Part shown: positions 26,809 to 52,585 of the stretch, piece by piece
Position numbering within the stretch: position 1 is the stretch's first letter
How the letters are laid out: the number at the start of each line of letters is the position of its first letter
Origin: Aneurinibacillus sp.
GTDB lineage: Bacteria > Bacillota > UBA5301 > DYFA01
Assembly: GCA_020725425.1 (NCBI GenBank)
Contig: DYFA01000045.1
Coordinates: forward strand, 70,924 to 134,923
Direction of reading: 5' to 3'
DNA: 64,000 nt
Made by a program: the position numbers and the translations under genes
The notes under the pieces: generated by a model
Database searches by the model: none
What the model was told of the DNA's origin: nothing
The model's input: the letters and a program-made list of their open reading frames with translations, nothing else

Positions 26809-27789
26809 CTAGGCCACCCGCTCGACGGAGACCTCATTCAGGAACCGCGCGACCTCCGACAAGTCCACTTCACCAGCGCAGGGCTGAAGGGCGGCGCTGG
26901 CGGCGGCCGCTGTGCCCAGGCGCAATGCTTCGAGCACCACGGATTCCGCTGCCTCCCTCACGAGGTCCTGGGGGGACCGGTCGAACACCACGGCACACCC
27001 GGCCACCAGGGCGTCGCCGCAACCGACGGTGTTCACGGGGGACAACCGTGGCGGGCGGACTGACCAGGCACCTTTCTCGGTGACCGCCACGAGACCGGCT
27101 GCTCCGAGGGAGACTACAACCAGGGAGAGGCCCCTTTCCACCCAGCGCCGGCTGACCCCGACAATTCGACGCACATCCTCGCCGGCCCCGTAATCTTGTT
27201 TTACCTCGAGGTCGCCCAGTTCTTCTTCGTTGGGCTTGATGAGGTACGGGCCGGCTTCGAGGCCTTTGGCCAAGGGAGCGCCACTGGTGTCGAGGATGGT
27301 CAGCGCCCCCGCTCCTTTAGCGGCTGTGACCAGGTCCCCGTAGAATCCCGCGGGAAGGCCCGACGGCAGGCTGCCGGAGAAGACGATCACCCGGCTCCGT
27401 TCCGCCAGGTGCTTGACCTTGTCCAGCATCAATCCGGCTTCGCGCGGAGAGATGTCCGGACTCGGCTCGCGCAGTTCCGTCTGGTTTCCGGCGGCCCGGT
27501 CCACCAGTACCAAGGTGGTACGGGATTCGCCGCCGACACGCACGAAGTCGGTAGCCAGGCCGAGCCTCGCCAGCTCCTCCTCGATCCAGCGACCGGCGTT
27601 CCCGCCGGTAAAACCGCTGGCCAGGGCTTCGGCTCCGAGGGTCTTGACCACCCGGGCGACGTTGATCCCCTTCCCACCGGGGCGGAGGAGCAGCGAGTCG
27701 ACGCGGTTGGCCCGCCCCACAGCAAAGCCGGAGACGAAGTAGGTCTTGTCGATTGCAGCGTTGAGCGTGACGGTGGTTATCATGTGCAC
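26809..27789 (-). CDS. PfkB-family 1-phosphofructokinase / tagatose-6-phosphate kinase
   Basis: 'MITTVTLNAAIDKTYFV' FruK/LacC-type N-terminus. PfkB signature 2 'DTVGCGDALVAG'. Confidence 0.8.
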   Translation of the reverse strand: MHMITTVTLNAAIDKTYFVSGFAVGRANRVDSLLLRPGGKGINVARVVKTLGAEALASGFTGGNAGRWIEEELARLGLATDFVRVGGESRTTLVLVDRAAGNQTELREPSPDISPREAGLMLDKVKHLAERSRVIVFSGSLPSGLPAGFYGDLVTAAKGAGALTILDTSGAPLAKGLEAGPYLIKPNEEELGDLEVKQDYGAGEDVRRIVGVSRRWVERGLSLVVVSLGAAGLVAVTEKGAWSVRPPRLSPVNTVGCGDALVAGCAVVFDRSPQDLVREAAESVVLEALRLGTAAAASAALQPCAGEVDLSEVARFLNEVSVERVA

Positions 27790-28646
27790 TGTTCCCTGGC
27801 GGCCGCGCGCCCCGCTGCTCCCACAAGGACGATCTTCTCGAAGACCGTCTCTTCCACCGCCTGCCGCCCGGCTCCCAGGTACTTCCGGGGGTCGAACTCC
27901 TCCGGATGCGCCGTGAGGAAGGCCCGGATGGCCGCAGTGAAGGGGATTTTCAATTCGGTGGAAAGGTTGACCTTCCGTATTCCCAGCTCCACGGCCCGTC
28001 GGACGCTCCCCTCGGGCACTCCCGAGGCCCCATGCATCACGAGCGGCACCGCCACCCGCTCCCGAATGGCGGCAAGGCGTTCGAAGTCCAACTTCGGCTC
28101 GCCCTGGTACACCCCATGGGCGGTCCCGATCGCCACCGCCAGGGCGTCCACCCCTGTCTCTTCGACAAACCTGGCCGCTTCGTGGGGATCGGTAAAGCCG
28201 CCCTCCCCGGAGAGGTCGTCCTCCATGCCGCCGATACGACCGAGTTCGGCCTCGACCGAGACCCCGGCGCCGTGGGCGACCTCGACCACTTTTCGGACCA
28301 GAGCGGCGTTCTCAGCGTAGGGGAGGCGGGAGCCGTCGATCATCACCGAGGTGAAACCGTGGCGGAGGCACTGCACGACCACCTCGAAGCTGGTACCGTG
28401 ATCGAGGTGGATGGCTGCCGGAACCCGGAGATCCTCCGCCAGAGTCCGCAGCAGCGCGGCCAGCGGCCTGATCCCGGCGTACTTGATGGTCCCCTGGTTC
28501 ACCTGAAAGATCACCGGGGCTTGGGCGCGTTCAGCCGCCGCGGCGACGGCCTGGGCGATCTCCATCCCGTGGACGTTGAAGGCGCCTACGGCATATCCTC
28601 CGGCCCGGGCGTCCGCCAGAAGCTCCTTAAGCGTCACAAGACTCAT
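27780..28646 (-). CDS. Class II tagatose-/fructose-1,6-bisphosphate aldolase (GatY/KbaY/FbaA family)
   Basis: 'GGYAVGAFNVHGMEI...PVIFQVNQGTIKY...AAIHLDHG...'. Confidence 0.8.
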   Translation of the reverse strand: MSLVTLKELLADARAGGYAVGAFNVHGMEIAQAVAAAAERAQAPVIFQVNQGTIKYAGIRPLAALLRTLAEDLRVPAAIHLDHGTSFEVVVQCLRHGFTSVMIDGSRLPYAENAALVRKVVEVAHGAGVSVEAELGRIGGMEDDLSGEGGFTDPHEAARFVEETGVDALAVAIGTAHGVYQGEPKLDFERLAAIRERVAVPLVMHGASGVPEGSVRRAVELGIRKVNLSTELKIPFTAAIRAFLTAHPEEFDPRKYLGAGRQAVEETVFEKIVLVGAAGRAAAREQCT

Positions 28647-29593
28647 GCCTTGTCACCTTCCCGTTCGCCGGACTCCAGGAACCGGCGCACCTCAGCCAGA
28701 TTCCGGAAGCCCCCCGTTCCTCCGGCCCTGGAGGCAGCCAGCGCCCCGCAGGCGTTACCCCAGACGAGGGCCTCCGGGACGTCGAAACCGTTGAGGTGGG
28801 CGTAGATGAAGCCGGCGTTGAAGGAGTCGCCAGCCCCAGTGGTATCCACCGCCTGGATACGGAATCCCGGTTGGCGGTAGAGCTTTCCTCCGACTCGGGC
28901 CACCGACCCCCGGGCACCCAGCTTGACGGCGACCACCGGCACGTCCCGGGCCACCCGGTCCAAGGCTTCCTCCACTGTCCCTGCGCCGGCGAGCTTCATG
29001 ACCTCCCGCTCGTTGGGCAGGAACACGTCAACCGACCGCCAGACCTCTTCGATCTCGCGGCCCCACCGGTCCCGCGGGTCCCACCCCGTGTCCAGAGAGG
29101 TGGAGAGCCCGAGGTTCTTCGCCCGGCGGTAGACTTCCGGAAGATCCGGCCGGAGACCGTCTTGGAGGTAATAGGCCGAGGTGTGGAAGTGCCGCGCTTG
29201 GCGGAGGTAATTCCAGTCGAGGTCCTCCGCCGTAAAGCAGGCCATGCTCCCCTGGTAGGTCACAAGCAGCCGGTCCTCCGGATAGGACAGGGAGATGGTC
29301 ACGCCGGTCGAGATCTGGGGGTCGACGATGACCCGGGAAGTGTCGATGCCTTCCCGGTGCAGGAAGTCGACACAGTAGCGGCCGAACTGGTCGTCGCCGA
29401 CCTTGCCGGTCAACCCGACGCGCAGCCCGAGCCGGGCGAGGCCCACGGCAAAGATAGCCGACGAGCTGCCCATAGTGAGGGTGAAGCCGGAGGCCAGCTG
29501 TTCGATCCCCAGCACGGGTAGGCCGTCCAAGCCCGTCAGAATCAGGTCCGGGTTCAATTCCCCGGCTACGACTACGTCGAGGCTCATGGGCAC
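28643..29593 (-). CDS. PfkB-family sugar (amino-sugar?) kinase
   Basis: Ribokinase-like fold. 'DTTGAGDSFNAGF' PfkB signature. Confidence 0.75.
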   Translation of the reverse strand: MPMSLDVVVAGELNPDLILTGLDGLPVLGIEQLASGFTLTMGSSSAIFAVGLARLGLRVGLTGKVGDDQFGRYCVDFLHREGIDTSRVIVDPQISTGVTISLSYPEDRLLVTYQGSMACFTAEDLDWNYLRQARHFHTSAYYLQDGLRPDLPEVYRRAKNLGLSTSLDTGWDPRDRWGREIEEVWRSVDVFLPNEREVMKLAGAGTVEEALDRVARDVPVVAVKLGARGSVARVGGKLYRQPGFRIQAVDTTGAGDSFNAGFIYAHLNGFDVPEALVWGNACGALAASRAGGTGGFRNLAEVRRFLESGEREGDKA

Positions 29594-29624
29594 CGCTCCT
29601 TGGTTGGCGGAAGGCAGCGGATGT

Positions 29625-30956
29625 CTACTCCGCCACGCCGCAGAACCGGACGATGAAGGCCGCCAGTTCCCGAACGCCCTGCCGCAGTTCGTCGAGGCTC
29701 ACGAACTCGTCGATCTCATGGGCATTGGCAAGATTCCCCGGCCCATAGATGAGCGAGGGGGTGTCGCCCCAGAGCATCAGGGTCATGGCGTCACAGGCGC
29801 TCTCGAACCCCCGGACCGGCGGCTGCCCCGGGCGGAGGTCGGCCAGGGTATCCCGGAGGACGGTAAAAACCGGATCGGACTCCTCTACAGCCACCGGGAA
29901 GATGGGCCGGAGCGGGGGTGATTCGAGCCTCACCGGGTGATCCTTCAGGAAGGGGTGGCGGGAAGCCCACTCCGCCACGAACTCCTCGAACCTCCTCATC
30001 ACGCCCTCCCGTGACTCGCCCGGCAGCATCTCGACCATGAAGTACATAACAGCCTCGTCAGGCACGGCGAAGAAGTTGGGGTCGCCTGCCTGGATTGACC
30101 AGATGTCGTCGACCAGCGCCGGGACGGCGAAACGGCGAGGGTCGGCGTACAGGGGATGGGAGCGGGTCTCTTCGGTCCGCACCTCCTGAAAGCGGCGGAG
30201 CCCCTCTTTCAGGTAGATGGCGTGGTCGAAGGCGCTGGCCCCGGCCCACCAGAGGCAGTTGTGGGTGGCCTTGCCGGGTACGACCATGCGGTACACGTGG
30301 TTACCCTTCAGGCCCGGGCAGATCTCGAGCTGCGTCGGTTCCACCACCACCGCCCCGTCGGCCCGGTAGCCCCGGGCGCAGCAGGCCAGCGTCCCGTCGT
30401 ACACTCCGGTCTCCTCGCTCACCACGCTTTCCAGAATCAAGTCTCCCGCAAGCTGGACGCCGGCGCGGCGGACAGCTTCCGCCGCCATCACCGCCATGGC
30501 CAGGCCACCCTTCATGTCGCAGGCCCCGCGGCCGTAGAGGCGGCCCTCCTTGACCACACCCTCGAAGGGCGGGTAGGTCCAGCGTTCGGGCTTCCCCGCC
30601 GGGACCACGTCCATGTGGCCGTTGAGGATGAGCGACCGTCCTCCGCCCCGTCCCTTCCGGACCGCCACCACGTTGGGCCGGCCGGTGAAGTCCTGTCCCG
30701 GCCACCATCCGGGATGCTGTTCGATGCCGGGAACGTCGGTGGGGAGGAAGACGTCCACCTTGTCATAGCCTAACTCGCCCAACCGGCCGGCCAGGAAGCG
30801 CTGGGCCTCCCCTTCGTTGCCGGACGGCGGTCGGATTTCGCTCGGCCGGCGGATCAACTCGACCGCCAGCTCCACCACTTCGTCGGACAAGGCTTCCGCT
30901 GCCTGCGCCGCGGCCAGGGCCGCTTTCCGTTCATGCTCGACCGCCACGAGGATCAC
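29625..30956 (-). CDS. M20-family metallo-deacylase (ArgE/DapE-like)
   Basis: 'NGHMDVVPAG', 'GRGACDMKGG', and the dimerisation domain. Confidence 0.8.
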   Translation of the reverse strand: MILVAVEHERKAALAAAQAAEALSDEVVELAVELIRRPSEIRPPSGNEGEAQRFLAGRLGELGYDKVDVFLPTDVPGIEQHPGWWPGQDFTGRPNVVAVRKGRGGGRSLILNGHMDVVPAGKPERWTYPPFEGVVKEGRLYGRGACDMKGGLAMAVMAAEAVRRAGVQLAGDLILESVVSEETGVYDGTLACCARGYRADGAVVVEPTQLEICPGLKGNHVYRMVVPGKATHNCLWWAGASAFDHAIYLKEGLRRFQEVRTEETRSHPLYADPRRFAVPALVDDIWSIQAGDPNFFAVPDEAVMYFMVEMLPGESREGVMRRFEEFVAEWASRHPFLKDHPVRLESPPLRPIFPVAVEESDPVFTVLRDTLADLRPGQPPVRGFESACDAMTLMLWGDTPSLIYGPGNLANAHEIDEFVSLDELRQGVRELAAFIVRFCGVAE

Positions 30957-30971
30957 CTCTATCCGCGAATC

Positions 30972-31955
30972 CTAACCCCGGCGGGCCAACACCGCCAGGA
31001 TGATGATGACGCCCTTGATGACCATCTGCGGATAGGCGGCGATGCCCATCAGGTTCATCATGTTGCCGATAATGCCGATGATGAAGGCCCCGATCAGCGT
31101 GTTGAGAATCGTTCCCCGCCCACCGGCGAAGGAAGCCCCGCCGATGACCACCGCGGCGATGGCGTCAAGCTCCATCCCCTGACCCACCAGGGCCGTCCCC
31201 ACCCGGAGCCGCGCCGCCATCAGGATGCCCACTAGCCCGGACAAGACGCTGGAGAGCATGTACACCGCGAACAGATTCTTCCGGAGCGAGATGCCGACGA
31301 GGCGCGCCGCGTCCCGGTTACCGCCGATGGCGTAGAGTTTCCGGCCGAAGGTCGTGTACTTGAGTACCACGTGCAGGACGACCGCCGCCAGCGCCATGAT
31401 CAACACCGGGACCGGGATCGGCCCCAGGTTACCGGTGAAGCCGTTGATGAAAGCGTTGTTGAAGATGACCCGGACCGAGCCGACCTGGTACATGTAGGCG
31501 GCACCTCGCACGATGGTCATCATCGCCAGGCTGGCGATGAACGGCTCCATCTTCCCGATCGCCACGAGCCCGCCGGAAATGGCGCCCGGGATGAGCATCA
31601 GCGCCAGAACCGCCAGGATAGTCAGGGGGATGGACCAGCCCGCTTCGAGGAAACCGGCGGTGAAGCAGGCGGCCAGGGCCACCACCGAGCCGACCGACAG
31701 GTCGATGCCCCCGGTGAGAATGACGTACAGCATGCCGAAGGAGACGATGGCCACCGCCGAGTTCTGGATGGCGATGTTCATCAGGTTCTCCTGGCTCAGA
31801 AAGCGCGGTGAGAGGATACTCGAGATGAGGACCAACAGCACCAGGCTGATGATCAGGTAGTAGCGGCCCAGCCAGACCCCAAGACTTTCCCTTGGCTGGC
31901 GTTGCGCCTTGAGGGAACCAGTGTTCACAGGCATGTGGCGTCCTCCCAATGACAA
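30972..31955 (-). CDS. Ribose-type sugar ABC transporter permease
   Basis: RbsC/BPD_transp_2 family, about 10 TM segments. Confidence 0.85.
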   Translation of the reverse strand: MSLGGRHMPVNTGSLKAQRQPRESLGVWLGRYYLIISLVLLVLISSILSPRFLSQENLMNIAIQNSAVAIVSFGMLYVILTGGIDLSVGSVVALAACFTAGFLEAGWSIPLTILAVLALMLIPGAISGGLVAIGKMEPFIASLAMMTIVRGAAYMYQVGSVRVIFNNAFINGFTGNLGPIPVPVLIMALAAVVLHVVLKYTTFGRKLYAIGGNRDAARLVGISLRKNLFAVYMLSSVLSGLVGILMAARLRVGTALVGQGMELDAIAAVVIGGASFAGGRGTILNTLIGAFIIGIIGNMMNLMGIAAYPQMVIKGVIIILAVLARRG

Positions 31956-31966
31956 AAGCGTTCTGC

Positions 31967-33454
31967 TCAGCTGACCATCTTGTTCATCAGCGCCGCTTCG
32001 CTGGCCTCTTCCCGGCTGAACTCCCCGTTGATGCGCCCTCGAGCCATGACCAGGATCCGGTCGGAGATGGCGAGGAGCTCGGGCAGTTCGGAGGAGATCA
32101 CGATGGTCGATCCACCCTGCTTCACGTAGTCATCGATCAACCGGTAGATCTCTTCCTTCGATCCCACGTCAACCCCGCGGGTCGGCTCATCGAACACCAG
32201 GATCCGGCAACGGGTGGCGAGCCACCTGGCGAGGACCACCTTCTGCTGGTTGCCGCCGCTGAGGATGGCAACGGGGCTCTCGAGCGACGGCATCTTCACG
32301 CGGACCTGCTGGGCGTAATCGGCCGCCACCTGACGGTCGGCGGAGGTGATCCACCCCAGGCGCGACACCCGCCCGAGGTCGCCCACGGTGATGTTGGCCC
32401 GGACCGGCAACTCCAGGAAGAGCGCCTGCTGCCGCCGGTCTTCCGGCAGGAATCCGATGCCCCGGTGGATAGCCTCCTGAGGTGAACGGACCTGGACCGG
32501 CTGACCGTCCAGGAGAATCCGGCCGGCCTGGCGCGGGTCGATGCCGAAGAGGGCCCGGGCCATCTCGCTCCGGCCGCTGCCCACGAGGCCCGCGATCCCG
32601 AGGATCTCCCCCTCGTGGAGCGCGAACGAGACGCCGGCCACTTTCGGCAGAGCCGTCAGCCCCTCGACCTGGAGGACCAGCCTTGAGGTGCAGTGCCCGC
32701 CCAACTTGAGGTCGCGCACCGGCCGCCCGATCATCAACTGCACGATCTTCTCCGGGCTGAACTCCTCCCGCCTGAGGTGGCCGGAGAGGCGGCCATCCTT
32801 GAGGACGGTGACCCGGTCGCACAGGTCCACGACCTCCCCCAGGCGGTGGGAGACATAGATGATCCCCACGCCCTCCTGCTTCAACTGGCGGATGAGGTCG
32901 TGCAGCCGGGCGATATCGTCGAGGCCCAGGACGGCGGTGGGTTCGTCGAGGATGACTAGTTTCGACCGGATCGACCACGCCCGGGCGATCTCGACCATCT
33001 GTCGCGCCGCCACCCCGAGCTGTTTCACCGGGACAGTCGGATCGATCTCCAGTCCCAACTGGCCCAGGATCTCCCTGGCGGCCTGGTTGAGCTTGCGATA
33101 GCTCACGGTCCCCCGCACGCCGGCGGAAGGGAGGCGTCCCAGGAAGATGTTCTCCGCCACGCTCAACTCCGGAACCAGGCTGAACTCCTGGTAAATGGTG
33201 ACGACCCCCGCTTCCCGGGCCTGGTTGGGACTCCAGCCCTGGACAGCCCGGCCCTCGAAGCGAATCGTCCCGGCATCCGGGGTGTATGCCCCCGAGAGAA
33301 TCTTGATCAACGTCGACTTGCCGGCCCCGTTCTCGCCCACCAGCCCGTGCACCTCTCCGGACTGTACGTCCAGAGAAACGCTGTCTAGCGCCCGAGTACC
33401 CACAAACTGCTTGGTCACACCGTTCACTTCTAGAAGCACGGCCATCAGGTTCAC
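31967..33454 (-). CDS. Sugar ABC transporter ATP-binding protein (tandem NBDs, RbsA-like)
   Basis: Two Walker A sites ('GENGAGKST', 'GLVGSGRSE'), two LSGGQ motifs, and Walker B motifs. Confidence 0.9.
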   Translation of the reverse strand: MNLMAVLLEVNGVTKQFVGTRALDSVSLDVQSGEVHGLVGENGAGKSTLIKILSGAYTPDAGTIRFEGRAVQGWSPNQAREAGVVTIYQEFSLVPELSVAENIFLGRLPSAGVRGTVSYRKLNQAAREILGQLGLEIDPTVPVKQLGVAARQMVEIARAWSIRSKLVILDEPTAVLGLDDIARLHDLIRQLKQEGVGIIYVSHRLGEVVDLCDRVTVLKDGRLSGHLRREEFSPEKIVQLMIGRPVRDLKLGGHCTSRLVLQVEGLTALPKVAGVSFALHEGEILGIAGLVGSGRSEMARALFGIDPRQAGRILLDGQPVQVRSPQEAIHRGIGFLPEDRRQQALFLELPVRANITVGDLGRVSRLGWITSADRQVAADYAQQVRVKMPSLESPVAILSGGNQQKVVLARWLATRCRILVFDEPTRGVDVGSKEEIYRLIDDYVKQGGSTIVISSELPELLAISDRILVMARGRINGEFSREEASEAALMNKMVS

Positions 33455-33523
33455 CTCTGAGTGCAGGGGTGAAGGGGCGATGCGCCGTCAGGCTCAGGCG
33501 GCGCATCGCCCTAGTCTGAGCAA

Positions 33524-34588
33524 TTAGTACTTGGATTTCGGGTTGTAGAAGTCCTTGACGTTCTCGGTGTTGATGCCCACGACCGGGATGTGGAAGATCG
33601 CCGGCACCTCGTATTTCTTCGCCGCGTTGGCCGCCAGGTACACAGCCCACTTGCCCTCTTTCCGCGGATCGACCAGGGCGCTCGAGACCACGCCGCTCTT
33701 CGGATCCTGGATCAGCTGCAGCTCCTCTTTTCGGCCACCGGCGGTGGCGATCATGATCTTGCCCTGTTTGCCGGCGGACTGAATGGCGGAGTAGGCGCCC
33801 ATCAGCATGTTGCCATCCAGCGTAAAGAGAACGTCGAGGTCCGGGTTGACCGTCAGGATGTCTTCCATCTGCTTCAGGGCGGCATCGGCCTGCCAATGTC
33901 CATACCGTGTGGCCACGATGTTAAGGTTCACCTTATTGTACTTCTCCAGGTAATAGGAGACGAACCCGGAGATCATGCCGTTCGACTCATCCTGAGAGTA
34001 GAGTTCCTTCGGGAAGCCCATGAGGAAGGCGGCCTTGATCTCCTTGGGGTTGCCGTGCTTCTTGTCGTACATCTCAGCCAGGTCCCGCCCGGCCACGTAG
34101 CCGAAGGCGTAAGTGTTGTGGCCCACGAAGGACAGCGGCTTGGCCTCCGGCACCATCTGACTGTTCACGTTGATGAGCGGGATCTTGGCGGCGTGGATCT
34201 TCTTCACGGCCGTCATGATGCCCTGTGGATCCACCGGGTTGACGATGATGGCGTCAACCTTCCGCGCGATCAGGTCTTCGATGTCGGAAATCTGCTTCGC
34301 CAGGTTGCCCTGAGCATCCAGCACGATCAACCTGGCCCCCAGGTGCTTGGCCTCTTCTTGGGCCAGCCGGATCAGATTCTCGTACCATCCGCTCCCGGCC
34401 ACCGCCCGCTGCGAGAAGCCGATCGTGATCCCTTTGAAGGAGTCCTTCTGCCCGATGACCGACTCGGAGCTCGCCTTCAGCATCTCGTCGGTAATCGTGG
34501 CGTCCTTCGCCAAAGCAGCAACGCAGGCGGCCATGACCACGACCGTAACCATGGCCAGCGTCAGCAGTGCCATCAGAACCTTCTTCAT
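33524..34588 (-). CDS. Sugar ABC transporter periplasmic-binding protein (RbsB/PBP1 family), secreted
   Basis: Signal peptide 'MKKVLMALLTLAMVTVVVMAAC' followed by a PBP type 1 fold. Confidence 0.8.
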   Translation of the reverse strand: MKKVLMALLTLAMVTVVVMAACVAALAKDATITDEMLKASSESVIGQKDSFKGITIGFSQRAVAGSGWYENLIRLAQEEAKHLGARLIVLDAQGNLAKQISDIEDLIARKVDAIIVNPVDPQGIMTAVKKIHAAKIPLINVNSQMVPEAKPLSFVGHNTYAFGYVAGRDLAEMYDKKHGNPKEIKAAFLMGFPKELYSQDESNGMISGFVSYYLEKYNKVNLNIVATRYGHWQADAALKQMEDILTVNPDLDVLFTLDGNMLMGAYSAIQSAGKQGKIMIATAGGRKEELQLIQDPKSGVVSSALVDPRKEGKWAVYLAANAAKKYEVPAIFHIPVVGINTENVKDFYNPKSKY

Positions 34589-34651
34589 CTTCACGCCTCC
34601 CATCTAGGTCGACTCTGTCGCGTGTCCATCCGTAACCGATAACAGATCGAC

Positions 34652-35980
34652 TCACCTGCACAACCCCTGCCTGATCACCCCCAACTCGCGCTTCACCAGT
34701 TCCCTCACGGCGGAGACCGAATCCGGGACCGGATAGCCCTTCTCGTCCAACAGGTTGTTCGCCCGGTCGAAGAGGCCCACGAGCCTCGGGGTGCCGCTCA
34801 CGCCGCGGACGACTGCCACGTGGCTCCGGGTCGTGAACACCTGCGCTCGAAACCCAAAGATCACCGTGTCCCCGCTCTTGACCTGGTCGGGACGTTCCAT
34901 GAGCATCGTCCCGCCGTAGTAATCGGTGGCGTTAAGCGTCCGGCCGAAGAAGGACCCGACGTCCACCGGAAGCCGACGGTCGAAGATGTCCTCAGGGCTT
35001 TGGCCGACGTAGGCGTGGGGCTCCCACCGCCGGGAAAGCCGGAAGGGGGTATCGTCCCCGCGGTTGGCCGGGGTGTCGCAGGCGTAGAAGCCGCCGCCGA
35101 AGCAGTAGGCCTTGTCCTCGAAAGTATGAGACACCTCGTTGACGTAGACCATGGCCGGGCGCTCCGGCAAGTCCTCCAAGAGGTGCCAGGGGGTGGTCCC
35201 CATGACCCCGTGGCCCGGTTCACCGTGCGTGCCGCCGTGCTCGCGGATGACGGGGAGCATCGCGCTGGACGTGGCGCCTGGTGTATTGATCTGAGTTACT
35301 TCGAAACCCCACCGCCGGAGTTGCCCGGCCGCCCGGACCGCTGTCTGGAAGTTGACTGTGGCCGTGCCGCCCTTGGCCGCTTCGGAGACCAGCGTGCCGG
35401 GGAAGGTCACCGTGCCCGCGATCCGGACGCCTTTCATCCGGGAAATCTGCTTCACGGCGTCCTCCAGGTCGGACTCCCAGATACCCCCCTCTTCGTTGGG
35501 GTAGATGATGTCCTGAGGAGCACGCACCCTGAGCAGAATCGGCTGGACCCGCCCCATCCGCTCGGCGGCCTCCGACAGCTCCCGAGCCTTGTCCACGCTG
35601 TAGATCGTCCAGACTTCCGGCTCCATCTCCAGGACGTGGGGCACTTCGCTGTGGGGTATTTGAACCAGATGGCCGACATGCTTGACCGGGACACCGAAGC
35701 GCCACAGATATTTGGCGCACTGGACGTCGACGGCGACGGCGCCAGGCAACCCCGCTCGTACGATGGCCCAGCTGACGAGAGGGTTCCGGTTGAAGTGCTT
35801 GCTCATGAAGTAGTTCTGGATACCCGTCCGCTCCGCGGCCTCCGCGATGGCCCTGGCGTTGGCGATCACCGTGTCCAGGTCGATCACGTAGGTGTTGGCC
35901 GGGATGACCCGTTCCCGGTGGAGTCGGACCGCGGCCCGGATGAGGTCGGGGTTACGACGGCGGGTCAGCTCGAGAAACAT
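34652..35980 (-). CDS. YhfX-like PLP-dependent alanine-racemase-fold protein (putative amino-acid/amino-sugar racemase/epimerase)
   Basis: Ala_racemase_N-like TIM barrel with a C-terminal beta domain. Similar in length and layout to E. coli YhfX. Confidence 0.55.
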   Translation of the reverse strand: MFLELTRRRNPDLIRAAVRLHRERVIPANTYVIDLDTVIANARAIAEAAERTGIQNYFMSKHFNRNPLVSWAIVRAGLPGAVAVDVQCAKYLWRFGVPVKHVGHLVQIPHSEVPHVLEMEPEVWTIYSVDKARELSEAAERMGRVQPILLRVRAPQDIIYPNEEGGIWESDLEDAVKQISRMKGVRIAGTVTFPGTLVSEAAKGGTATVNFQTAVRAAGQLRRWGFEVTQINTPGATSSAMLPVIREHGGTHGEPGHGVMGTTPWHLLEDLPERPAMVYVNEVSHTFEDKAYCFGGGFYACDTPANRGDDTPFRLSRRWEPHAYVGQSPEDIFDRRLPVDVGSFFGRTLNATDYYGGTMLMERPDQVKSGDTVIFGFRAQVFTTRSHVAVVRGVSGTPRLVGLFDRANNLLDEKGYPVPDSVSAVRELVKRELGVIRQGLCR

Positions 35981-36061
35981 GTCGGGGCACCTCCGCTTCC
36001 CGGTATGAGGACAGACCTTTCTCTCCAGATTGTTGCTCGTTTTGAAACATTTTCCCTGCTC

Positions 36062-36117
36062 ATATAATCATAATGCGCCGCACTGATCCGGTATTTGAGC
36101 GTTCATTGTGATTATAT
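36062..36117. promoter_or_regulatory. Inverted repeat ATATAATCA ...38 nt... TGATTATAT in the AT-rich divergent promoter region (candidate DeoR/AgaR operator)
   Basis: The arms at 36062-36070 and 36109-36117 are exact reverse complements. A third TGATTAT copy lies at ~36270. Confidence 0.3.
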
Positions 36118-36164
36118 CTTATCAAGCGCGCTGGCTGGCGTCAACCCGGAGCCATCGAAAACCG

Positions 36165-36186
36165 CGTGAATAATCCGTGAATAATC
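36165..36186. promoter_or_regulatory. Perfect 11-bp tandem direct repeat CGTGAATAATC x2 (candidate DeoR-family operator)
   Basis: Visible directly in the sequence. DeoR-family regulators commonly bind direct repeats. Confidence 0.3.
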
Positions 36187-36335
36187 TGGGAGGAGCCTCA
36201 GGCCTCCGGCTGGGGTGTCTCTGTGGCAACTTTCTGCTCATTTGCGCATAGTAGTTGACCGTTTAGCCATAACTGGTTATGATTATGGCAGGAGGCATTC
36301 CTGGCGGAGCCAGGCGTTATGCCGGGGAGGAAGTT

Positions 36336-37118
36336 ATGGCACAGAACCGACGATGGGCGGAACGGTGGCACAGCATTCTGAGGGAAGTCGAAAAAACCGG
36401 CCTGGTGAACGTGGATGAGTTGGCTCGGACGCTCAACGTCAGTGAGGCCACCGTCCGGCGTGACTTGTACCGCATGGACCGGGAGGGCCTGATCCGCCGG
36501 GTACACGGGGGCGCGGTGATGCGGGATCGCGGGGCAGCCGAACTCCCGCTGATCGAGCGGTCCACTCTGCGCCAGGAAGCAAAACGGGCGATCGGTAAAG
36601 CGGCCGCGGCGCTCGTCAATTCCGGGGAGACCGTGTTTATCGGCAGCGGGACGACCGCGCTGGCAGTCGCTGAGGCGCTGGTCGAGCGAACCGAGCTCAA
36701 GGAGGTGACGATCATCACCAACTCCATCCCGGTAGCCGTGACCGTGACTCGTGCCCCACACCTGGGGCTGATCGTGGTCGGAGGTTTCCTGCGCCGGGAA
36801 GAGCAGTCTTTGATCGGTTTCCTCGCCGAACAGACCTTCCGCGAGTTGCGCGCCGACAAGGTGATCATGGGGGTGGGCGCCATCCATCTCGAGCACGGCC
36901 TCACCAACCGCCACGTGGTGGAGATGCATACGGACCGCACTATCATGGACCTAGCCCCTGAGGTGATCGTCGTCGCCGACCACAGCAAATTCGGGACCGT
37001 GGCCACGGCCCGCCTCGCCGGCCTGGACAAGGTCTCCACGATCGTCACCGACTCGGGCTTGCCTGAAGCTGAAGCAGCCAAGTACGAAGCTCTGGGGATT
37101 CGCGTATTGCGCTCTTGA
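36336..37118 (+). CDS. DeoR-family transcriptional regulator (AgaR-like)
   Basis: N-terminal HTH 'VDELARTLNVSEATVRRDLYRMDREGLIRRVHGGAV' with a DeoR C-terminal sugar-phosphate sensor domain. RBS GGGGAGGAAG precedes the ATG at 36336. Confidence 0.85.
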   Translation: MAQNRRWAERWHSILREVEKTGLVNVDELARTLNVSEATVRRDLYRMDREGLIRRVHGGAVMRDRGAAELPLIERSTLRQEAKRAIGKAAAALVNSGETVFIGSGTTALAVAEALVERTELKEVTIITNSIPVAVTVTRAPHLGLIVVGGFLRREEQSLIGFLAEQTFRELRADKVIMGVGAIHLEHGLTNRHVVEMHTDRTIMDLAPEVIVVADHSKFGTVATARLAGLDKVSTIVTDSGLPEAEAAKYEALGIRVLRS

Positions 37119-38332
37119 GACCCCTTACTACCCCGGAAAGGATGCGGCCGATGAACGCTCTACAAAGCCTGCTCGCCGAAAGCGACCTCGAGAAAGCCCG
37201 TAGTAAAGGTCTGGCCTACACCCCGCGCGAGATCGCCCACCAACCCGAAGCCTGGTTCAAGACCGCCGAGAGGGTGCTGGAAGAGGCGCCGTTGGCCGGT
37301 TTCCTCCGGCAGGCCCTTGAACCGGCGGGACCCGTGATCCTGGCGGGGGCCGGCACCTCCTATTACGTTGGTACTTCAGTGCGCAACTTCCTGACCGCCT
37401 CCTGGAAGCGCACTGTCCTGGCGGTCCCTTCGACGGAGATCGTCCTCGCCCCCGACCTCTGCCTCCCCCGGGACGCCACCCTGATGATCAGCTATGCCCG
37501 GTCCGGGCAAAGCCCGGAGGGAAACGCCGCCTTGGAGCTGGCAAGACAGGTCCGGCCGGAGACGGCCCACCTGGCCGTCACCTGCAACCACGAGGGTCTG
37601 CTCTACCGGCTGGCTGGAGGGTGGCCGGGGGGCTTCCCGCTCCTCCTGCCCGAGATGACCAACGACCGGGGGCTGGCCATGACCAGTTCCTACTCGAGCA
37701 TGGTGGTCGCTACCTACGGGCTGGCCTTCCTGAACGAACCCGAAACCTATCTGTCCCTCGTCGAGAAGCTCGCCGTCACCGCCCGACGCATCCTGGACGC
37801 CGAAGCCGACGCCGCCCGGCAGATCGCCGAAATGCCCTTTGCCCGGGCGTTGTACGTGGGAAACCGCGACCTGTTCGGAGTGGCTCAGGAAGCCCACCTC
37901 AAGCTGCAGGAGATGAGCGCCGGCCGGGTGATCGGCAAGGCCGAAACCACCCTCGGTCTCCGCCACGGCCCGATGGCTTCGATCGACGACCAAACGCTGG
38001 TGGTCGTGTTCCTGTCTTCGGACCCCTATGTCCGCCGCTATGAGCTGGATCTCCTGCGCGAGCTGAAGAACCAGGGACTGGGCATGCTCCGGGTGGCGAT
38101 CGATGAGCAGGCTGACCTGGAGGTGGCGCCGCTGGTGGATCACCTCGTCGAGCTGCGCCTGGGCGGAACGCCGATGGGCGATCTCAGCCGGGCGCCGGCG
38201 GCGGTCATCTTTCCGCAGTTGTTGGCCCTTTTCCGGTCCCTCCATGAAGGGTTGCTGCCCGACGCCCCGAGCCCCAAGGGGGTGATTAACCGGGTGGTCC
38301 AAGGGGTGCGCATCTACCCCTACTCGGCCTGA
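37115..38332 (+). CDS. Double-SIS-domain sugar-phosphate isomerase/deaminase (AgaS / GlmS C-terminal-like)
   Basis: Two SIS domains (405 aa). Translationally coupled to the DeoR gene. Confidence 0.75.
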   Translation: MRPLTTPERMRPMNALQSLLAESDLEKARSKGLAYTPREIAHQPEAWFKTAERVLEEAPLAGFLRQALEPAGPVILAGAGTSYYVGTSVRNFLTASWKRTVLAVPSTEIVLAPDLCLPRDATLMISYARSGQSPEGNAALELARQVRPETAHLAVTCNHEGLLYRLAGGWPGGFPLLLPEMTNDRGLAMTSSYSSMVVATYGLAFLNEPETYLSLVEKLAVTARRILDAEADAARQIAEMPFARALYVGNRDLFGVAQEAHLKLQEMSAGRVIGKAETTLGLRHGPMASIDDQTLVVVFLSSDPYVRRYELDLLRELKNQGLGMLRVAIDEQADLEVAPLVDHLVELRLGGTPMGDLSRAPAAVIFPQLLALFRSLHEGLLPDAPSPKGVINRVVQGVRIYPYSA

Positions 38333-38603: not shown

Positions 38604-39734
38604 CTAGATCAGAAGACGCTTGTATCGCTCGACCTCGGCCCGGACCTCTTGAGCCAGTCTCTCGTACTTGTCCGCCAGCCTGACCGTCCGGATCCGCTCC
38701 GCCCGGGGATCGGCCGGCACCAGGAACCCCTCCTCGATCCACCTCTTCGTCTTCTCCCGGACAGTCCGGTCCGCCAACCCGGTGAGGCGGCGCAGGTCCG
38801 TGGTAGTGGCGGTGCTGCTGCGGAGAGCCAGATGGGCAAAGACCGTCCGCTGGACGCCGTCCAGGTGACGGAGGAGGTCGGGCTCGACCGACACGAACTC
38901 CTGACTCTTCGCCTCCACCACTTTGGCCGCCTCCAGAAAGACCTCGCCCACGCCTTGCAGGAAGAAGTCCAGCCAAGGGGTGAGGTCGGCGTCGTGGCGC
39001 CCGAAGTAGTAGTTGTGATGCAAGCCCATCTGGAGATTGGCGTAATAAGCGGCCAGGTTCCGGTCGTAATAGGTTTCGAGTACGAACAGGCGCTTCAACC
39101 CGAGCCCGCCACGCCGCATGAGATAAGTGGCCAAAGCCCTGCCTGTCCGGCCGTTCCCGTCAAGATAGGGGTGGATCGTCAGGAACTGGTAGAGAAAGAT
39201 CCCGGCCTGGATGGGCACAGGCAGCTCGCTGGCCGCCGGATGGTTGATCCAGGCCACCAGATCCTCCATCAAGCGGGGGACGTCTTCCCACTCCGGGGGC
39301 AGGTATACGATGCGCCCCGTGGACTCGTCTCTTACGGCGTTCTGCTCTTTGCGGTACTCGCTTAGGCGCGGCCGCCGGCCGCCGGGGATGACCCTGATGA
39401 TTGCATGGACCCGCTTGATCAGTTCCTCCGTGACCGGCAGACCCCGCTCTTCGCACTCCTCCAGGTACTCCATCGCCTTATACAGGTTGGATACCTCTTG
39501 TTCGGCCGCCGACCTGGTGCGGGCATATAACGCGGTCCGCTTTTGGGCTTCACTCAGCCGGTTTCCTTCGAGTTTGGTCGAGAGCAACACAGTCTGGACG
39601 CGGGACTCCCGCTGGAGCTCCTTCAGGATGTTGGCCGGCAGCGGGAGGTGCTCCACCAGTGTATTGGCGCGCGCAATCTCCATCAGATTAGAGGCCATGC
39701 GAGGGGTGATCGAGAACCGCGGGGCAAACGGCAT
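38604..39734 (-). CDS. Class II Fic-family protein (AMP-transferase) with intrinsic inhibitory helix and C-terminal wHTH
   Basis: Fic motif 'HPYLDGNGRTGRAL'. Inhibitory motif 'STKLEGN' ([ST]xxxE[GN]) near the N-terminus. The likely start is the second Met (RBS GGAGG precedes it). Confidence 0.85.
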   Translation of the reverse strand: MPFAPRFSITPRMASNLMEIARANTLVEHLPLPANILKELQRESRVQTVLLSTKLEGNRLSEAQKRTALYARTRSAAEQEVSNLYKAMEYLEECEERGLPVTEELIKRVHAIIRVIPGGRRPRLSEYRKEQNAVRDESTGRIVYLPPEWEDVPRLMEDLVAWINHPAASELPVPIQAGIFLYQFLTIHPYLDGNGRTGRALATYLMRRGGLGLKRLFVLETYYDRNLAAYYANLQMGLHHNYYFGRHDADLTPWLDFFLQGVGEVFLEAAKVVEAKSQEFVSVEPDLLRHLDGVQRTVFAHLALRSSTATTTDLRRLTGLADRTVREKTKRWIEEGFLVPADPRAERIRTVRLADKYERLAQEVRAEVERYKRLLI

Positions 39735-39755
39735 AATAAAGCCTCCTCGGGCCAT

Positions 39756-39784: not shown

Positions 39785-40045
39785 TCAGGTACGCCCGCTC
39801 TTCCCGCGGCTGGGGCTCTTCCGGACGGGGCGGGGACGGAGCTTGATCTCCGGGGTGACGCCCGGGGGGAGCAGTTCCTTCACGTCCCGCTCGAACTGAC
39901 GGCGGGGCAGCATCACGATGTGGCCGCACCCCAGGCACTTCAGCCGGAAGTCCATCCCCACCCGCAGGACCTCCCAGGCGTCCGAACCGCAGGGGTGTTC
40001 CTTCCGCAGCCGGACCAGGTCGCCCACGTGGTAGCGGGTCACAGT
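39785..40045 (-). CDS. DUF951 family small protein
   Basis: 'HVGDLVRLRKEHPCGSDAWEVLRVGMDFRLKCLGCGHIVMLPRRQFERDVKELL' matches the DUF951 consensus. GTG start overlaps the mscS stop. The listed 140-aa ORF is an N-terminal over-extension. Confidence 0.7.
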   Translation of the reverse strand, partial: TVTRYHVGDLVRLRKEHPCGSDAWEVLRVGMDFRLKCLGCGHIVMLPRRQFERDVKELLPPGVTPEIKLRPRPVRKSPSRGKSGRT

Positions 40046-40977
40046 CACGGCTTGCCCTCCCCTTCCGGCCGGCCGGTAAGGACGGGCTCCGGGCCGGCGG
40101 GTCCGCTTCCCTTGACGATGAGCATCCGGTGCGGGAAGGGAATCTCGATCCCCTGGGCGTCGAAACGCTCCTTGATCAACCGCTTCAGCTCCCGCTCGAC
40201 CCCCCACTGCTCCATGGGGCGGGTGCGGGCCAGGACCCGGATCGCGACCCCCGACTCACCCAGCTCCTGGACGCCGAGGACGGCCGGAGCCTCCACCAGC
40301 CGGTCGTTGCCCTGGGCGTACTCCTCGAGGACCTGCTGCAAGACGGTGATGGCCTGCTCTAGATCGGTCCCGTAGGAGACCTCCACGTCGAACATCACCC
40401 GCATGGAGGGCCCCATGTGGTTCGTGACCTGGGTGATCTGGCCGTTGGGGATGATGTGCAGTTGTCCGCCGGGGTCGCGGATCTTGGTGATGCGGATACC
40501 CATCTCCTCCACGATCCCCGTCACCCCGCCGGCGGTGATGAGGTCGCCCACCCCGTACTGGTCCTCGAAGAGGATGAAGAAGCCCGTGATGACGTCCCGG
40601 ACCAGGTTCTGGGCCCCGAAGCCGATAGCCAGCCCGCCGATCCCGGCGGCGGTGAGAATCGAGGTGGTGTTGAACCCCAGGTTCTGAAGAACCATCACCC
40701 CGGCAAAGAAGTAGATGACGTACTGGGCGATGGAGGCGATCAGAGTGGAGAGGGTTTTAACCCGGCGCTCGTCGAGGTAGACGTGGCGTTCCGGCTGGAA
40801 GAGGCGGTTCACGAAGGTTTCGGCCACCTTCACCAGAAGGCGCGCCCCGACGACGATCGCCAGGAGCACCAGGACACGGCCGAGCGCCTCCAGCAGCGCG
40901 CCTCCCTCGACCATGCGTTTGAACCAGGCCTGAACCCCCGGAAGAGCAGTCAGCAGATAGTTCGTCGCCGTCGCCAA
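40045..40977 (-). CDS. MscS-family small-conductance mechanosensitive channel
   Basis: Three TM helices followed by the MscS beta domain ('...GDLITAGGVTGIVEEMGIRITKIRDPGGQLHIIPNGQI'). Confidence 0.85.
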   Translation of the reverse strand: MATATNYLLTALPGVQAWFKRMVEGGALLEALGRVLVLLAIVVGARLLVKVAETFVNRLFQPERHVYLDERRVKTLSTLIASIAQYVIYFFAGVMVLQNLGFNTTSILTAAGIGGLAIGFGAQNLVRDVITGFFILFEDQYGVGDLITAGGVTGIVEEMGIRITKIRDPGGQLHIIPNGQITQVTNHMGPSMRVMFDVEVSYGTDLEQAITVLQQVLEEYAQGNDRLVEAPAVLGVQELGESGVAIRVLARTRPMEQWGVERELKRLIKERFDAQGIEIPFPHRMLIVKGSGPAGPEPVLTGRPEGEGKP

Positions 40978-40988: not shown

Positions 40989-41861
40989 CTAGCGGAATCC
41001 TTCAAGCAGCCGCAGCGCCAGGGCCGGGTCACCCATGGGGAAGAGGTGCACCCCCGGCACCCTGCCCCAGAGCTCGGCCAGGATCTCCCGGGCGAGACGG
41101 ACGCCTTCGTCCGGGGCCCCTTTCTCCATGCGCTCCAGGATGAACGGCGGGATCCGGATTCCCGGCACGTGCGTGTTCAGGTAAACCGCCGACTTGTAGC
41201 TCTTGAGCGGCAACACGCCGTAGATCACCCGAACTCCGAGATGGGCCGTCCGGCGCCGGAACTCAGCCGCCTGCTCCAGGTCGAAGACGGGCTGCGTCTG
41301 GGCGAAGACGATCCCCGCCTCCACCTTGGCCTCGAGGCGCGCCGCCTCGACCTCCAGGTCCGGGGCGTTGGGGCTGGCCGTCCCGCCGATCAGGAAGTCG
41401 GTCGGAGCGTCCAAGGGTTTGCCGTTGCTGTCCTGGCCGGCGTTGAGCGTGCGGGCCAGCCTGGCCAGACCCAGGGCGTCCACGTCGAACACCCCGGTGG
41501 CCTGGGGGTGGTCGCCCCGTTCCGGCCGGTCTCCCGTCAGGGCCAGGATGTTCTTAACCCCGAGCGCCGCCGCCCCGAGCAGCTCGGCTTGCAGCCCCAG
41601 GAGGTTGCGGTCCCGGCAGGTCAGGTGGAAGATGGCCTCCACCCCCAGGTCCTGCTGGAGCAGGTGGGCGCAGGCGATGGGGCTCATGCGCAGGTTGGCC
41701 ATGGGGCTGTCCGCCACGTTCACCGCGTCCACCAGCGCCGCCAGCACGCCGGCCTTCGCCAGCATCGGACGGGGGTCGGACCCCCGGGGCGGCTCCAGCT
41801 CCACCGTAACCACGAACTCTCCCCGGGCCAGCTTCTGCCGGAGATTCTTTTCCTCCTCCAC
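40989..41861 (-). CDS. metF: 5,10-methylenetetrahydrofolate reductase
   Basis: 'FVVTVELEPPRGSDP...' with an MTHFR TIM barrel. 290 aa. Confidence 0.85.
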   Translation of the reverse strand: MEEEKNLRQKLARGEFVVTVELEPPRGSDPRPMLAKAGVLAALVDAVNVADSPMANLRMSPIACAHLLQQDLGVEAIFHLTCRDRNLLGLQAELLGAAALGVKNILALTGDRPERGDHPQATGVFDVDALGLARLARTLNAGQDSNGKPLDAPTDFLIGGTASPNAPDLEVEAARLEAKVEAGIVFAQTQPVFDLEQAAEFRRRTAHLGVRVIYGVLPLKSYKSAVYLNTHVPGIRIPPFILERMEKGAPDEGVRLAREILAELWGRVPGVHLFPMGDPALALRLLEGFR

Positions 41862-52175: not shown

Positions 52176-52360
52176 CTCGCCTGAGAGATGCCCTGGGCGA
52201 CTTTCCCTCCGCCCGGGTTGCTCCTTCGGCGGGCTTTGCGCCGCCTCTCCAGAGTGCCGTCCTCCCGGGCTTCCGCTTGCCTGAGAGTTTCAGCGAGGGT
52301 GGCCGCTCCTCGCCTTGCTCCTTCGGCGCCCGACTCTCCGGGTCTCTCCCCCGGGACTCC
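52147..52360 (-). ncRNA. Tandem glycine riboswitch (two aptamers)
   Basis: Minus-strand RNA aptamer 1: 'GGGGGAGAG...GCGCCGAAGGAGCAAGG...ACUCUCAGGCAAG'. Aptamer 2: 'CUCUGGAGAG...GCCGAAGGAGCAACC...UCUCUCAGGCGAGAAGGACAGAG'. Both match the glycine riboswitch consensus and sit upstream of gcvT. Confidence 0.85.
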
Positions 52361-52585
52361 TCCGGCCGGTATGCGATTGTCGGTCGCTTCAAGTCTATTC
52401 GCCCGCTGCTATTATTGGGCACCGGCGGGGCCAATTCCTGCCAGACCCGGACCCCCTGGCGCGGGGAGACATATAATGGCGCCAGAACGGGCGATGGTCC
52501 CAGGGAAAGTGGGGTGGAAGGATGGAGACCCTTCTGCAGCGGCTGGTCAATCCGATTCTCAGGCGGTGCAACCGCACGGTCATCC

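Follow-up and report, generated by a model that had tools for sequence, protein, structure and literature searches.

The window analysed here is a 64,000-nucleotide stretch of an Aneurinibacillus sp. assembly (GCA_020725425.1, contig DYFA01000045.1, positions 70,924 to 134,923 of the forward strand), and at 26809-38332 it holds a ten-gene sugar-breakdown locus that includes homologues of amino-sugar catabolic enzymes, an ATP-binding cassette (ABC) importer, an M20-family amidohydrolase and a pyridoxal phosphate (PLP) enzyme related to E. coli YhfX. Amino-sugar catabolic loci are of a known kind, and the new part is the uncharacterised front end, which recurs across phyla. Open reading frames (ORFs) and Pfam and NCBIfam profiles bore out the identities and coordinates that a preliminary description of this DNA had given for all ten genes. 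Eight of them, tightly packed or overlapping, form an operon on the minus strand that runs from the YhfX-like gene through the genes for the substrate-binding protein, ATPase, permease, M20 enzyme, first PfkB kinase and aldolase to that for the second PfkB kinase, and the genes for a DeoR regulator and a double-SIS enzyme lie divergently on the plus strand. At the downstream end of the operon, three successive genes overlap by 4 to 10 bases (10 between the aldolase and second kinase genes), which is consistent with a single transcription unit. The features of the locus are as follows:

26809-27789, minus strand: PfkB kinase 2 (PF00294 and TIGR03168)
27780-28646, minus strand: class II ketose-bisphosphate aldolase (PF01116)
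28643-29593, minus strand: PfkB kinase 1, IolC/ribokinase-like (PF00294, without an equivalog match)
29625-30956, minus strand: M20 amidohydrolase of the ArgE/DapE family (PF01546, PF07687 and TIGR01910)
30972-31955, minus strand: RbsC-type ABC permease, ribose/CUT2 type (PF02653)
31967-33454, minus strand: ABC ATPase with two fused nucleotide-binding domains, CUT2 type (PF00005 twice)
33524-34588 (ORF open to 34603), minus strand: Peripla_BP_4 substrate-binding protein (PF13407)
34652-35980, minus strand: YhfX-like fold-type III PLP enzyme, first gene of the operon (PF21279 and PF01168)
35981-36336: AT-rich divergent control region of 356 bp (promoter-like hexamers and repeats)
36337-37118 (ORF back to 36279), plus strand: DeoR regulator, AgaR/GlpR-like (PF08220 and PF00455)
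37151-38332 (ORF back to TTG 37115), plus strand: AgaS-like double-SIS enzyme (TIGR02815 and 3C3J)

For comparison, about 100 loci encoding YhfX-like relatives (each given an L number) were collected, and their neighbouring genes were labelled by Pfam, NCBIfam, clustering and tblastn. Within the window, the SIS protein groups by profile and structure searches with AgaS and not with GlmS, in agreement with the preliminary description: it scores 326.4 bits on the agaS_fam model TIGR02815 (under the trusted cut-off of 529.2) against only 60-63 bits on the GlmS and GlmD models, and it aligns over its full length with the E. coli AgaS structure 3C3J (E = 4e-70, residues 34-405 on 14-384). Its homologue in L006, to which it is 38% identical, reaches 410.7 bits on the AgaS model, also under the cut-off. 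Recycling of peptidoglycan or N-acetylmuramic acid through a MurQ-type SIS enzyme was considered and rejected: the window protein matched the AgaS, GlmS and GlmD models and no MurQ model (E <= 0.001), the SIS proteins of L002, L006, L008, L009 and L011 matched GlmS, GlmD, AgaS and NagB-II models and no MurQ model (E <= 1e-10), and a tagatose-type back end does not fit such a route.

The remaining sugar-processing proteins are assigned to their families with similar clarity and to their substrates with much less. PfkB kinase 2 (136 bits on PF00294) passes only the umbrella subfamily TIGR03168 for 1-phosphofructokinases and hexose kinases (290.7 bits, cut-off 216.4); the nearest equivalog is FruK (TIGR03828, 270.5 bits, under its cut-off of 292), and the LacC models give 179-185 bits against cut-offs of 409-469. 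The aldolase (348.8 bits on PF01116) passes the class II fructose-bisphosphate (FBP) aldolase model TIGR01859 (357.6 bits, cut-off 343) and reaches none of the cut-offs of the GatY/KbaY models (348, 346, 334 and 293 bits against 384, 383, 443 and 542). The tagatose branch that had been assumed for this locus is thus plausible from the gene families, with the reservation that the aldolase and the second kinase score slightly better as fructose-type than as tagatose-type proteins. PfkB kinase 1 (166 bits on PF00294), a candidate for phosphorylating the free sugar or amino sugar, has its best NCBIfam matches far below their cut-offs (IolC_N 159, ribose-1-phosphate kinase 144, tagatose kinase 108, 2-keto-3-deoxygluconate (KDG) kinase 102 and FrlD 94 bits). 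An inositol- or rhizopine-type route, with an IolC-like kinase and an IolJ-like aldolase, was set aside because no IolG-, IolE-, IolD- or IolB-type genes occur in the window locus or its annotated relatives. The regulator is best described from its profile scores as a generic DeoR-family member, with 192.1 bits on the AgaR model NF040755 (cut-off 260) and a nearly equal 168 bits on GlpR-type models. The gene families are secure, and the sugar specificities are not fixed by the sequences.

Turning to the uptake system, the binding protein (176.6 bits on PF13407) has 4RY9 as its best solved relative (E = 3e-43), ribose-binding proteins being much weaker matches, and a literature search for the ligand of 4RY9 found no relevant paper. 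Its N-terminus is hydrophobic and followed by a Cys, resembling a signal or lipoprotein-like segment. The permease scores 243 bits on the RbsC model and the ATPase about 500-525 bits on the AraG, XylG and RbsA models, all under the cut-offs. The M20 protein passes TIGR01910 (240.4 bits, cut-off 217.6) and does not pass the ArgE or DapE equivalog models; it matches PDB entry 3PFO at E = 6e-42, and its translation has the metal and catalytic motifs HMD, CDMKGG, SEETG, VEPT and NAHE, so that the H-x-D, the bridging D, the EE, the E and the C-terminal H of the family layout are all present. We propose that it removes an N-acyl or aminoacyl group; it may do so as a replacement for NagA or in order to unmask an amine for the YhfX-like enzyme.

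The YhfX-like protein scores 45.3 bits on PF01168 (cut-off 24.1) and 71.2 bits on PF21279 (cut-off 27), and it matches the structure of E. coli YhfX, 4KBX, at E = 7e-78 with 35% identity. YhfX is an E. coli K-12 y-gene product with a solved PLP-bound structure, and its RefSeq name is "putative PLP-binding protein". The two proteins have in common the motifs Y-F/L-M-S/T-K (with the lysine), HxGHLVQIP, EPGH, E-V/I-SH and GGG-F/Y-Y. K61, in YFMSKHF, aligns with YLMTKQF of E. coli YhfX and is kept in all of 21 homologues; a weak profile match further places it opposite the HAK lysine of the D-threonine aldolase 7DIB. An AlphaFold2 model (pLDDT 91) superposes on 4KBX in Foldseek with TM-scores of 0.82/0.94, and the neighbours past YhfX (query TM-scores 0.54-0.63) are D-threonine aldolases, a beta-hydroxyaspartate aldolase, a D-threo-3-hydroxyaspartate dehydratase and a protein resembling D-serine deaminase. 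Scores for the aldolases and the dehydratase are 0.57-0.63, and these neighbours stand somewhat ahead of alanine racemases and decarboxylases. Sequence-profile searches for solved relatives other than YhfX gave marginal matches (E about 0.1), so the fold relationship to the D-threonine aldolases and the other enzymes comes from Foldseek only. The D-threonine aldolases and dehydratases act on beta-hydroxy amino acids through elimination or aldol cleavage. A role for YhfX as an amino-sugar 2-epimerase (mannosamine to glucosamine, or talosamine to galactosamine) was set aside, by reasoning alone, as the same ketose arises from both epimers and talosamine is too rare for galacto-type loci. The family is small yet spread over several phyla, with 171 clusters at 50% identity reaching E <= 1e-30 among 1.84 billion representative proteins. 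Several related loci carry next to the first YhfX gene a second, divergent paralogue, 34-42% identical to the window protein and labelled by tblastn (L009 5897-7168, L016 5-1009, L021 11346-12557, L079 2624-3328); such pairs may serve two successive PLP steps or two substrates.

When the window is set beside its closest relative, L094, identity is highest in the YhfX-like enzyme (76%), the M20 enzyme (66%) and the binding protein (57%), and falls to 48% in the aldolase, 41% in each PfkB kinase and 27% in the SIS protein. The closest relatives, whose YhfX-like proteins are 75-76% identical to that of the window, have a GntR/UTRA regulator instead of DeoR and a different SIS protein of 350 amino acids (aa; 27% identical). 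The gene order from the YhfX-like enzyme through binding protein, ATPase and permease to M20 is identical in the window, L094/L095, the L002 group and L006, and the M20 proteins of L002 and L006 are 60-63% identical to that of the window. Plasmids of Aminobacter, Nitratireductor, Ruegeria and Rhizobium carry an M20 enzyme, a CUT2 ABC importer and a YhfX-like enzyme side by side, accompanied by a ROK regulator; these alphaproteobacterial operons keep the trio without a kinase and usually without a deaminase, a SIS gene following it on the Rhizobium plasmid. The trio is also found in gut Clostridiales. The synteny and co-conservation, like the operon layout and the gene families, are direct observations, and by this comparison of sequences the stable unit is the ABC importer with the M20 and YhfX-like enzymes, whereas kinases, SIS protein, aldolase and regulator are swapped or divergent (27-48%). 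The preliminary description had placed the core of the locus in an AgaR/AgaS-type system for galactosamine (GalN) or N-acetylgalactosamine (GalNAc): the homologies hold, but the AgaR and AgaS cut-offs are not reached, and the unit that is conserved is the YhfX-like enzyme with its importer and M20 partner.

Around this unit, the relatives vary in nearly every other part. There are at least four SIS subtypes, mutually 20-38% identical; regulators are DeoR or GntR/UTRA proteins; kinases are PfkB or BadF/NagK-like; importers are CUT2, CUT1 or Liv-type ABC systems or APC amino-acid-type permeases; the ketose-phosphate branch, where there is one, consists either of a second PfkB kinase paired with an aldolase (class II or LacD-like class I) or of a GatZ/KbaZ-like protein by itself; and the amide hydrolase is M20, dimethylformamidase-like alpha/beta, amidase-signature or CE4-like, or is missing. 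What recurs is the company of the YhfX-like enzyme: in its subfamily (>= 50% identity), a GlmS/AgaS/GlmD-type SIS gene and a sugar kinase gene stand beside it in all 12 loci with enough flank. More distant relatives (36-46% identical) belong to the conserved E. coli-type cluster yhfZ-Y-X-W-php-U-T-S, and nine of these loci contain a true NagB (330 bits, cut-off 236.9), which in L031, L034, L061 and L077 follows yhfX/yhfW together with a Cof-type HAD phosphatase. The presence of YhfX beside SIS deaminases or NagB, two unrelated folds, ties the family to hexosamine-6-phosphate deamination, and we regard this link, drawn from gene neighbourhoods, as the strongest clue to where YhfX pathways lead. 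About 20 E. coli-type clusters also carry an amidase-signature-like protein of 372 aa without an NCBIfam match, and the context of NagB, HAD phosphatase and amidase may hint at what the E. coli yhf operon does. The uncharacterised E. coli cluster thus resembles the window locus in its PLP family, its active-site motifs, its hexosamine-6-phosphate deaminase and often an amidase-like protein. It differs in that the YhfW mutase, Php, YhfS, YhfT/U and YhfY/Z are all absent from the window, in having NagB where the window subfamily has SIS deaminases, and in its shorter YhfX, the window protein being longer with a partly different C-terminal domain.

On this basis we propose, with moderate confidence, that the window encodes a two-module catabolic locus for an N-acylated or amino-acid-linked amino sugar, probably of galactosamine type, and we infer from the sequences the enzymatic steps, the order of the M20, YhfX and kinase reactions, and the substrate. 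The binding protein and CUT2 ABC system would import a monosaccharide-sized compound with an amide, one that yields a primary amine once the amide is removed; the M20 enzyme would take off the N-acyl or aminoacyl group and expose that amine; and the YhfX-like enzyme would form a Schiff base with it and carry out an elimination, aldol-type or epimerisation step to give an ordinary hexosamine, possibly N-acetylated. In the second module, PfkB kinase 1 would convert the hexosamine to its 6-phosphate, the AgaS-like enzyme would deaminate and isomerise this to a ketose-6-phosphate (tagatose-6-phosphate if the sugar is galacto-configured), PfkB kinase 2 would phosphorylate the ketose monophosphate to the 1,6-bisphosphate, and the class II aldolase would split the latter into dihydroxyacetone phosphate and glyceraldehyde-3-phosphate. 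Control of both divergent promoters would fall to the DeoR regulator, whose gene probably shares a transcript with the SIS gene and which probably senses a sugar-phosphate intermediate.

Several observations support this proposal. A galacto-configured sugar and tagatose-6-phosphate are favoured by the AgaS-homologous SIS protein, by the locus having its own second kinase and aldolase, and by the GatZ/KbaZ-like or LacD-like proteins that stand in for the aldolase in relatives. Every ABC-importer locus has an amide hydrolase, drawn from four or five unrelated families and never NagA-type, and the recruitment of several unrelated amidase families but never NagA argues for an unusual amide. The APC-permease loci are mostly without an amide hydrolase, and this contrast with the ABC-importer loci suggests that the amide is unmasked before the PLP chemistry. 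The fold of the YhfX model, nearest after YhfX to D-threonine aldolases and related enzymes, also speaks for the proposal, and the ong pathway and alf-2 operon described below are published precedents for its logic. The cautious earlier suggestion of an N-acylated or amino-acid-conjugated amino sugar as the substrate is strengthened by this genome-context comparison, and a literature search found no characterised pathway with this gene set and with known substrates to which these genes could belong. The earlier interpretation as a whole is partly supported.

Some points weigh against the proposed pathway. Neither a function nor a reaction for YhfX was found in the searchable literature; NCBIfam equivalog cut-offs are missed by the SIS protein, the regulator and the second kinase, and by the aldolase on the tagatose-type models; and since the aldolase passes the FBP aldolase model and the second kinase is nearest to FruK, the ketose could be fructose-based. 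The context survey amounts to about 12 independent architectures, and in the high-GC loci genes were partly called by tblastn with labelled reference proteins. If the YhfX-like enzyme stripped off the sole amine of the substrate, as does OngC, a PLP deaminase discussed below, nothing would be left for the SIS enzyme to deaminate. A simpler route is also possible, in which the M20 enzyme deacetylates GalNAc-6-phosphate and YhfX has a side role.

In its general form, this simpler route makes the locus a plain operon for GalNAc and GalN (or for N-acetylglucosamine, GlcNAc, and glucosamine), with M20 as a non-orthologous replacement for NagA/AgaA and YhfX as an accessory, such as a side-activity racemase or a detoxifier. 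The amino sugar would enter through the ABC system and be phosphorylated by a PfkB kinase, and the AgaS-like enzyme, PfkB kinase 2 and the aldolase would complete its breakdown. The gene set minus YhfX does complete such a pathway with no step missing, and the locus has no NagA-type gene; in the same direction, the Shewanella N-acetylglucosamine kinase model matches the BadF-type kinases found in L002 and L006, at only 81 bits, and L021 has a CE4-type, carbohydrate-deacetylase-like hydrolase at the M20 position. YhfX, however, occurs in all of the loci, even where there is no amidase, and it is both the most conserved gene and the one that opens the operon, which accords poorly with an accessory role. 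The replacements seen among the relatives also speak against a plain hexosamine route, as the amidases recruited are of unrelated families and never NagA, the sugar ABC importer gives way to APC amino-acid-type, Liv-type and CUT1 transporters, and the alphaproteobacterial operons, with no kinase and usually no deaminase, keep M20, YhfX and the ABC importer. We consider this explanation unlikely. Among known systems, one of the closest is the E. coli aga system for GalNAc and GalN, which the window locus resembles in its DeoR regulator, full-length AgaS homologue and class II ketose-bisphosphate aldolase, and in the presumed course from amino-sugar phosphate through ketose phosphate to trioses. 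Unlike aga, the window has an ABC importer and soluble PfkB kinases in place of a phosphotransferase system, lacks AgaA/NagA and KbaZ, and adds the M20 and YhfX-like enzymes; its proteins stay under the AgaR, AgaS and KbaY cut-offs, and its closest relatives use GntR and another SIS type.

The structural neighbourhood of the YhfX model brings in a different precedent. In the ong pathway for oxidised chitin in Pseudoalteromonas, the deacetylase OngB is followed by the fold-type III PLP deaminase OngC and the PfkB-type kinase KdgK, and OngC is a glucosaminate deaminase of the same structural neighbourhood as the neighbours of the YhfX model (PMC9537276). An analogous route here would start from N-acetyl-hexosaminic acids (GlcNAc1A, GalNAc1A), with deacetylation by M20, deamination or dehydration by YhfX to a 2-keto-3-deoxy-aldonate and phosphorylation by PfkB kinase 1. 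For a series of N-deacylation, fold-type III PLP enzyme and PfkB kinase, it has the strongest biochemical precedent, and the structures nearest to the YhfX model are those that also neighbour OngC. N-acetyl-hexosaminates are N-acyl alpha-amino acids, the typical substrates of M20 enzymes, which counts in favour of this route; the amino-acid-type transporters of relatives would likewise fit an amino-acid-like substrate, and the alphaproteobacterial version could feed the Entner-Doudoroff pathway without more dedicated genes. Yet it leaves no role for the SIS enzyme (12 of 12 long loci), for NagB of the E. coli-type clusters, for PfkB kinase 2 or for the FBP-type aldolase; neither an Eda-type aldolase nor a RidA homologue was seen in these loci, and PfkB kinase 1 shows no preference for KDG kinases (102 bits) over several other PfkB families. 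The ong system itself differs from the window in that OngB is a D-aminoacylase-type amidohydrolase and not M20, OngC belongs to another subfamily, and the pathway needs RidA and has no SIS enzyme, second kinase or FBP-type aldolase. A hexosaminate substrate is in our view very unlikely.

A fructosamine-type route (Amadori or Heyns compounds), as in the frl (fructoselysine), fra (fructose-asparagine) and gfr systems, would combine a kinase for a glycated amino acid, a SIS deglycase and an amidase that converts an amide form, as FraE does with fructose-asparagine, with YhfX acting on the amino-acid moiety. A resemblance to Frl had been remarked on in the preliminary description, and in composition it is real: relatives have the same kinds of parts (PfkB kinase, GlmS-like SIS protein, GntR/UTRA regulator, APC permease), L008 and L010 have this frl composition with YhfX replacing FrlC, the E. 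coli yhf cluster adjoins frlABCDR, and the GntR regulators encoded here share 29-31% identity with FrlR. Orthology, by contrast, was ruled out by blastp with E. coli FrlA, FrlB and FrlD, none of which is orthologous to any protein here: among the SIS proteins of these loci, identity to FrlB does not exceed 23% (best E = 1e-10), and FrlB has no match to the AgaS-like protein of the window, FrlA is about 21% identical over a fragment, and PfkB kinase 1 is 29% identical to FrlD and scores 93.7 bits on the FrlD model against a cut-off of 247. The AgaS-like, GatZ-like and NagB proteins point to 2-amino sugars and not to ketosamines, alpha-N-glycated amino acids offer PLP no primary amine, and the deglycase is usually missing in the alphaproteobacterial operons. 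Moreover, frl and fra systems are without a PLP enzyme, and their products are an aldose-6-phosphate and an amino acid. We find such a route most improbable for these loci.

A further idea is that the YhfX family consists of PLP beta-lyases that free the sugar from O-glycosylated Ser or Thr (e.g., GalNAc-alpha-Ser/Thr), a non-hydrolytic deglycosylation, which we offer as speculation and judge distinctly unlikely. A glyco-amino acid or short glycopeptide would be imported, M20 would trim the peptide or N-acyl group and free the alpha-amine, and YhfX would eliminate the sugar to leave pyruvate or 2-oxobutyrate and ammonia, with the sugar then handled by the second module (first kinase, AgaS-like enzyme, second kinase and aldolase). 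In such a pathway every gene has a role, and the idea would explain the mixture of sugar-type and amino-acid-type transporters among relatives. It would also explain the absence of glycoside hydrolases, none of which appears in any locus with annotated neighbours, and the S9 peptidase and BNR-repeat protein that flank the module in L087 fit with it. The gap in such a scheme is that GalNAc would need to be deacetylated before the AgaS-like step, by a housekeeping NagA encoded elsewhere or by M20 doing double duty.

Salvage of glyco-amino acids has a described counterpart in the alf-2 operon of Lactobacillus casei, with AlfH, AlfC, AsnA2, AsdA, PepV, SugK and AlfR2 (PMC6960285). Its parts are of the same kinds as those of the window locus (transporter, cytoplasmic peptidase, PLP enzyme, amide hydrolase, sugar kinase and regulator), and it acts on an amino acid to which a sugar is attached. 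The peptidase, PepV, belongs to peptidase family M20. This gene combination makes a glyco-amino-acid salvage architecture plausible for the window locus. The families, compared by description only, are otherwise different: alf-2 has a major facilitator superfamily permease, the fold-type I enzyme AsdA, an Ntn-type glycosylasparaginase and a fucosidase, and its substrate is the N-linked GlcNAc-Asn. GlcNAc-Asn was itself considered as a substrate for the window locus and rejected, since an amidase alone would be enough and YhfX would be left without a role.

The locus and its relatives set the orphan YhfX family in a readable context, that of a hexosamine-6-phosphate deaminase and a kinase, usually with an amide hydrolase and an importer, and so make its function directly testable. 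Glyco-amino acids, N-acyl hexosaminates and N-acyl hexosamines make up the substrate short list, all of them compounds that can be purchased or synthesised, and culturable carriers suitable for genetics are available in Ruegeria sp. TM1040 (TM1040_RS01745-01770), Aminobacter and Micromonospora (sp. NPDC049679). If the substrate is a glyco-amino acid or an oxidised amino sugar, these loci would represent a previously unrecognised recycling route for glycoprotein and amino-sugar material in gut and soil bacteria; if the beta-lyase idea is right, it would provide the first testable function for the E. coli yhf operon.

In the control region between the two divergent units, promoter-like sites are found at 36144-36116 on the minus strand and 36255-36283 on the plus strand. 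A tandem CGTGAATAATC repeat lies at 36165-36186, and a ATAATCATAA / TTATGATTAT motif occurs in three copies within 36062-36286, overlapping the promoter-like hexamers; the 10-mer of these repeats has no further occurrence in the window. The repeats are candidate operator sites for DeoR. As to gene starts, the regulator most likely begins at ATG 36337 (260 aa, the same as the public gene call), where there is a GGAGGAAG ribosome-binding site; the binding protein most likely starts at ATG 34588 (354 aa, the same length as the public gene call), and the SIS protein probably at ATG 37151 (393 aa).

Among the related loci, a few further arrangements were noted. An ORF of 101-103 aa without a Pfam match lies directly upstream of yhfX in L094 (9664-9975) and L095 (5325-5630) and is absent in the window. 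L001 (JBLNBY010000322.1), a 2.9-kb contig in a Bacteroidota metagenome-assembled genome, has DeoR divergent from YhfX and the binding protein, as in the window, with 89% identity in YhfX and 84% in DeoR; the contig is probably mis-binned. In the actinobacterial-type loci L008 (13952-20850) and L010 (8084-15043), the module of APC permease, YhfX, SIS protein and PfkB kinase adjoins another cluster with a DAO-type oxidase and glutamine-synthetase-like, GATase and glutamate-synthase-like proteins, which resembles gamma-glutamyl-amine or N-methylglutamate pathways. Because L008 and L010 are close relatives, the adjacency of the two clusters may be coincidental.

The genes flanking the window locus encode a single-stranded DNA-binding protein, a DUF2232 protein, a Fic protein, MscS, methylenetetrahydrofolate reductase (MTHFR) and a MetH-like protein, none of them tied to sugar metabolism. 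The Fic/DOC-domain gene (38604-39755, minus strand) is directly downstream of the SIS gene and convergent with it, and past it follow the genes for MscS (40045-40977), MTHFR (40989-41861) and the MetH-like methionine synthase (41888-44785). No tRNA genes occur in the 64-kb window. G+C content is about 75% at 8000-14000, 53% at 54000-56000 and 63-73% elsewhere, and two riboswitches score above their Rfam gathering scores, both on the minus strand: a cyclic di-GMP-I riboswitch at 5298-5387 (55.5 bits) and a glycine riboswitch at 52258-52361 (51.1 bits).

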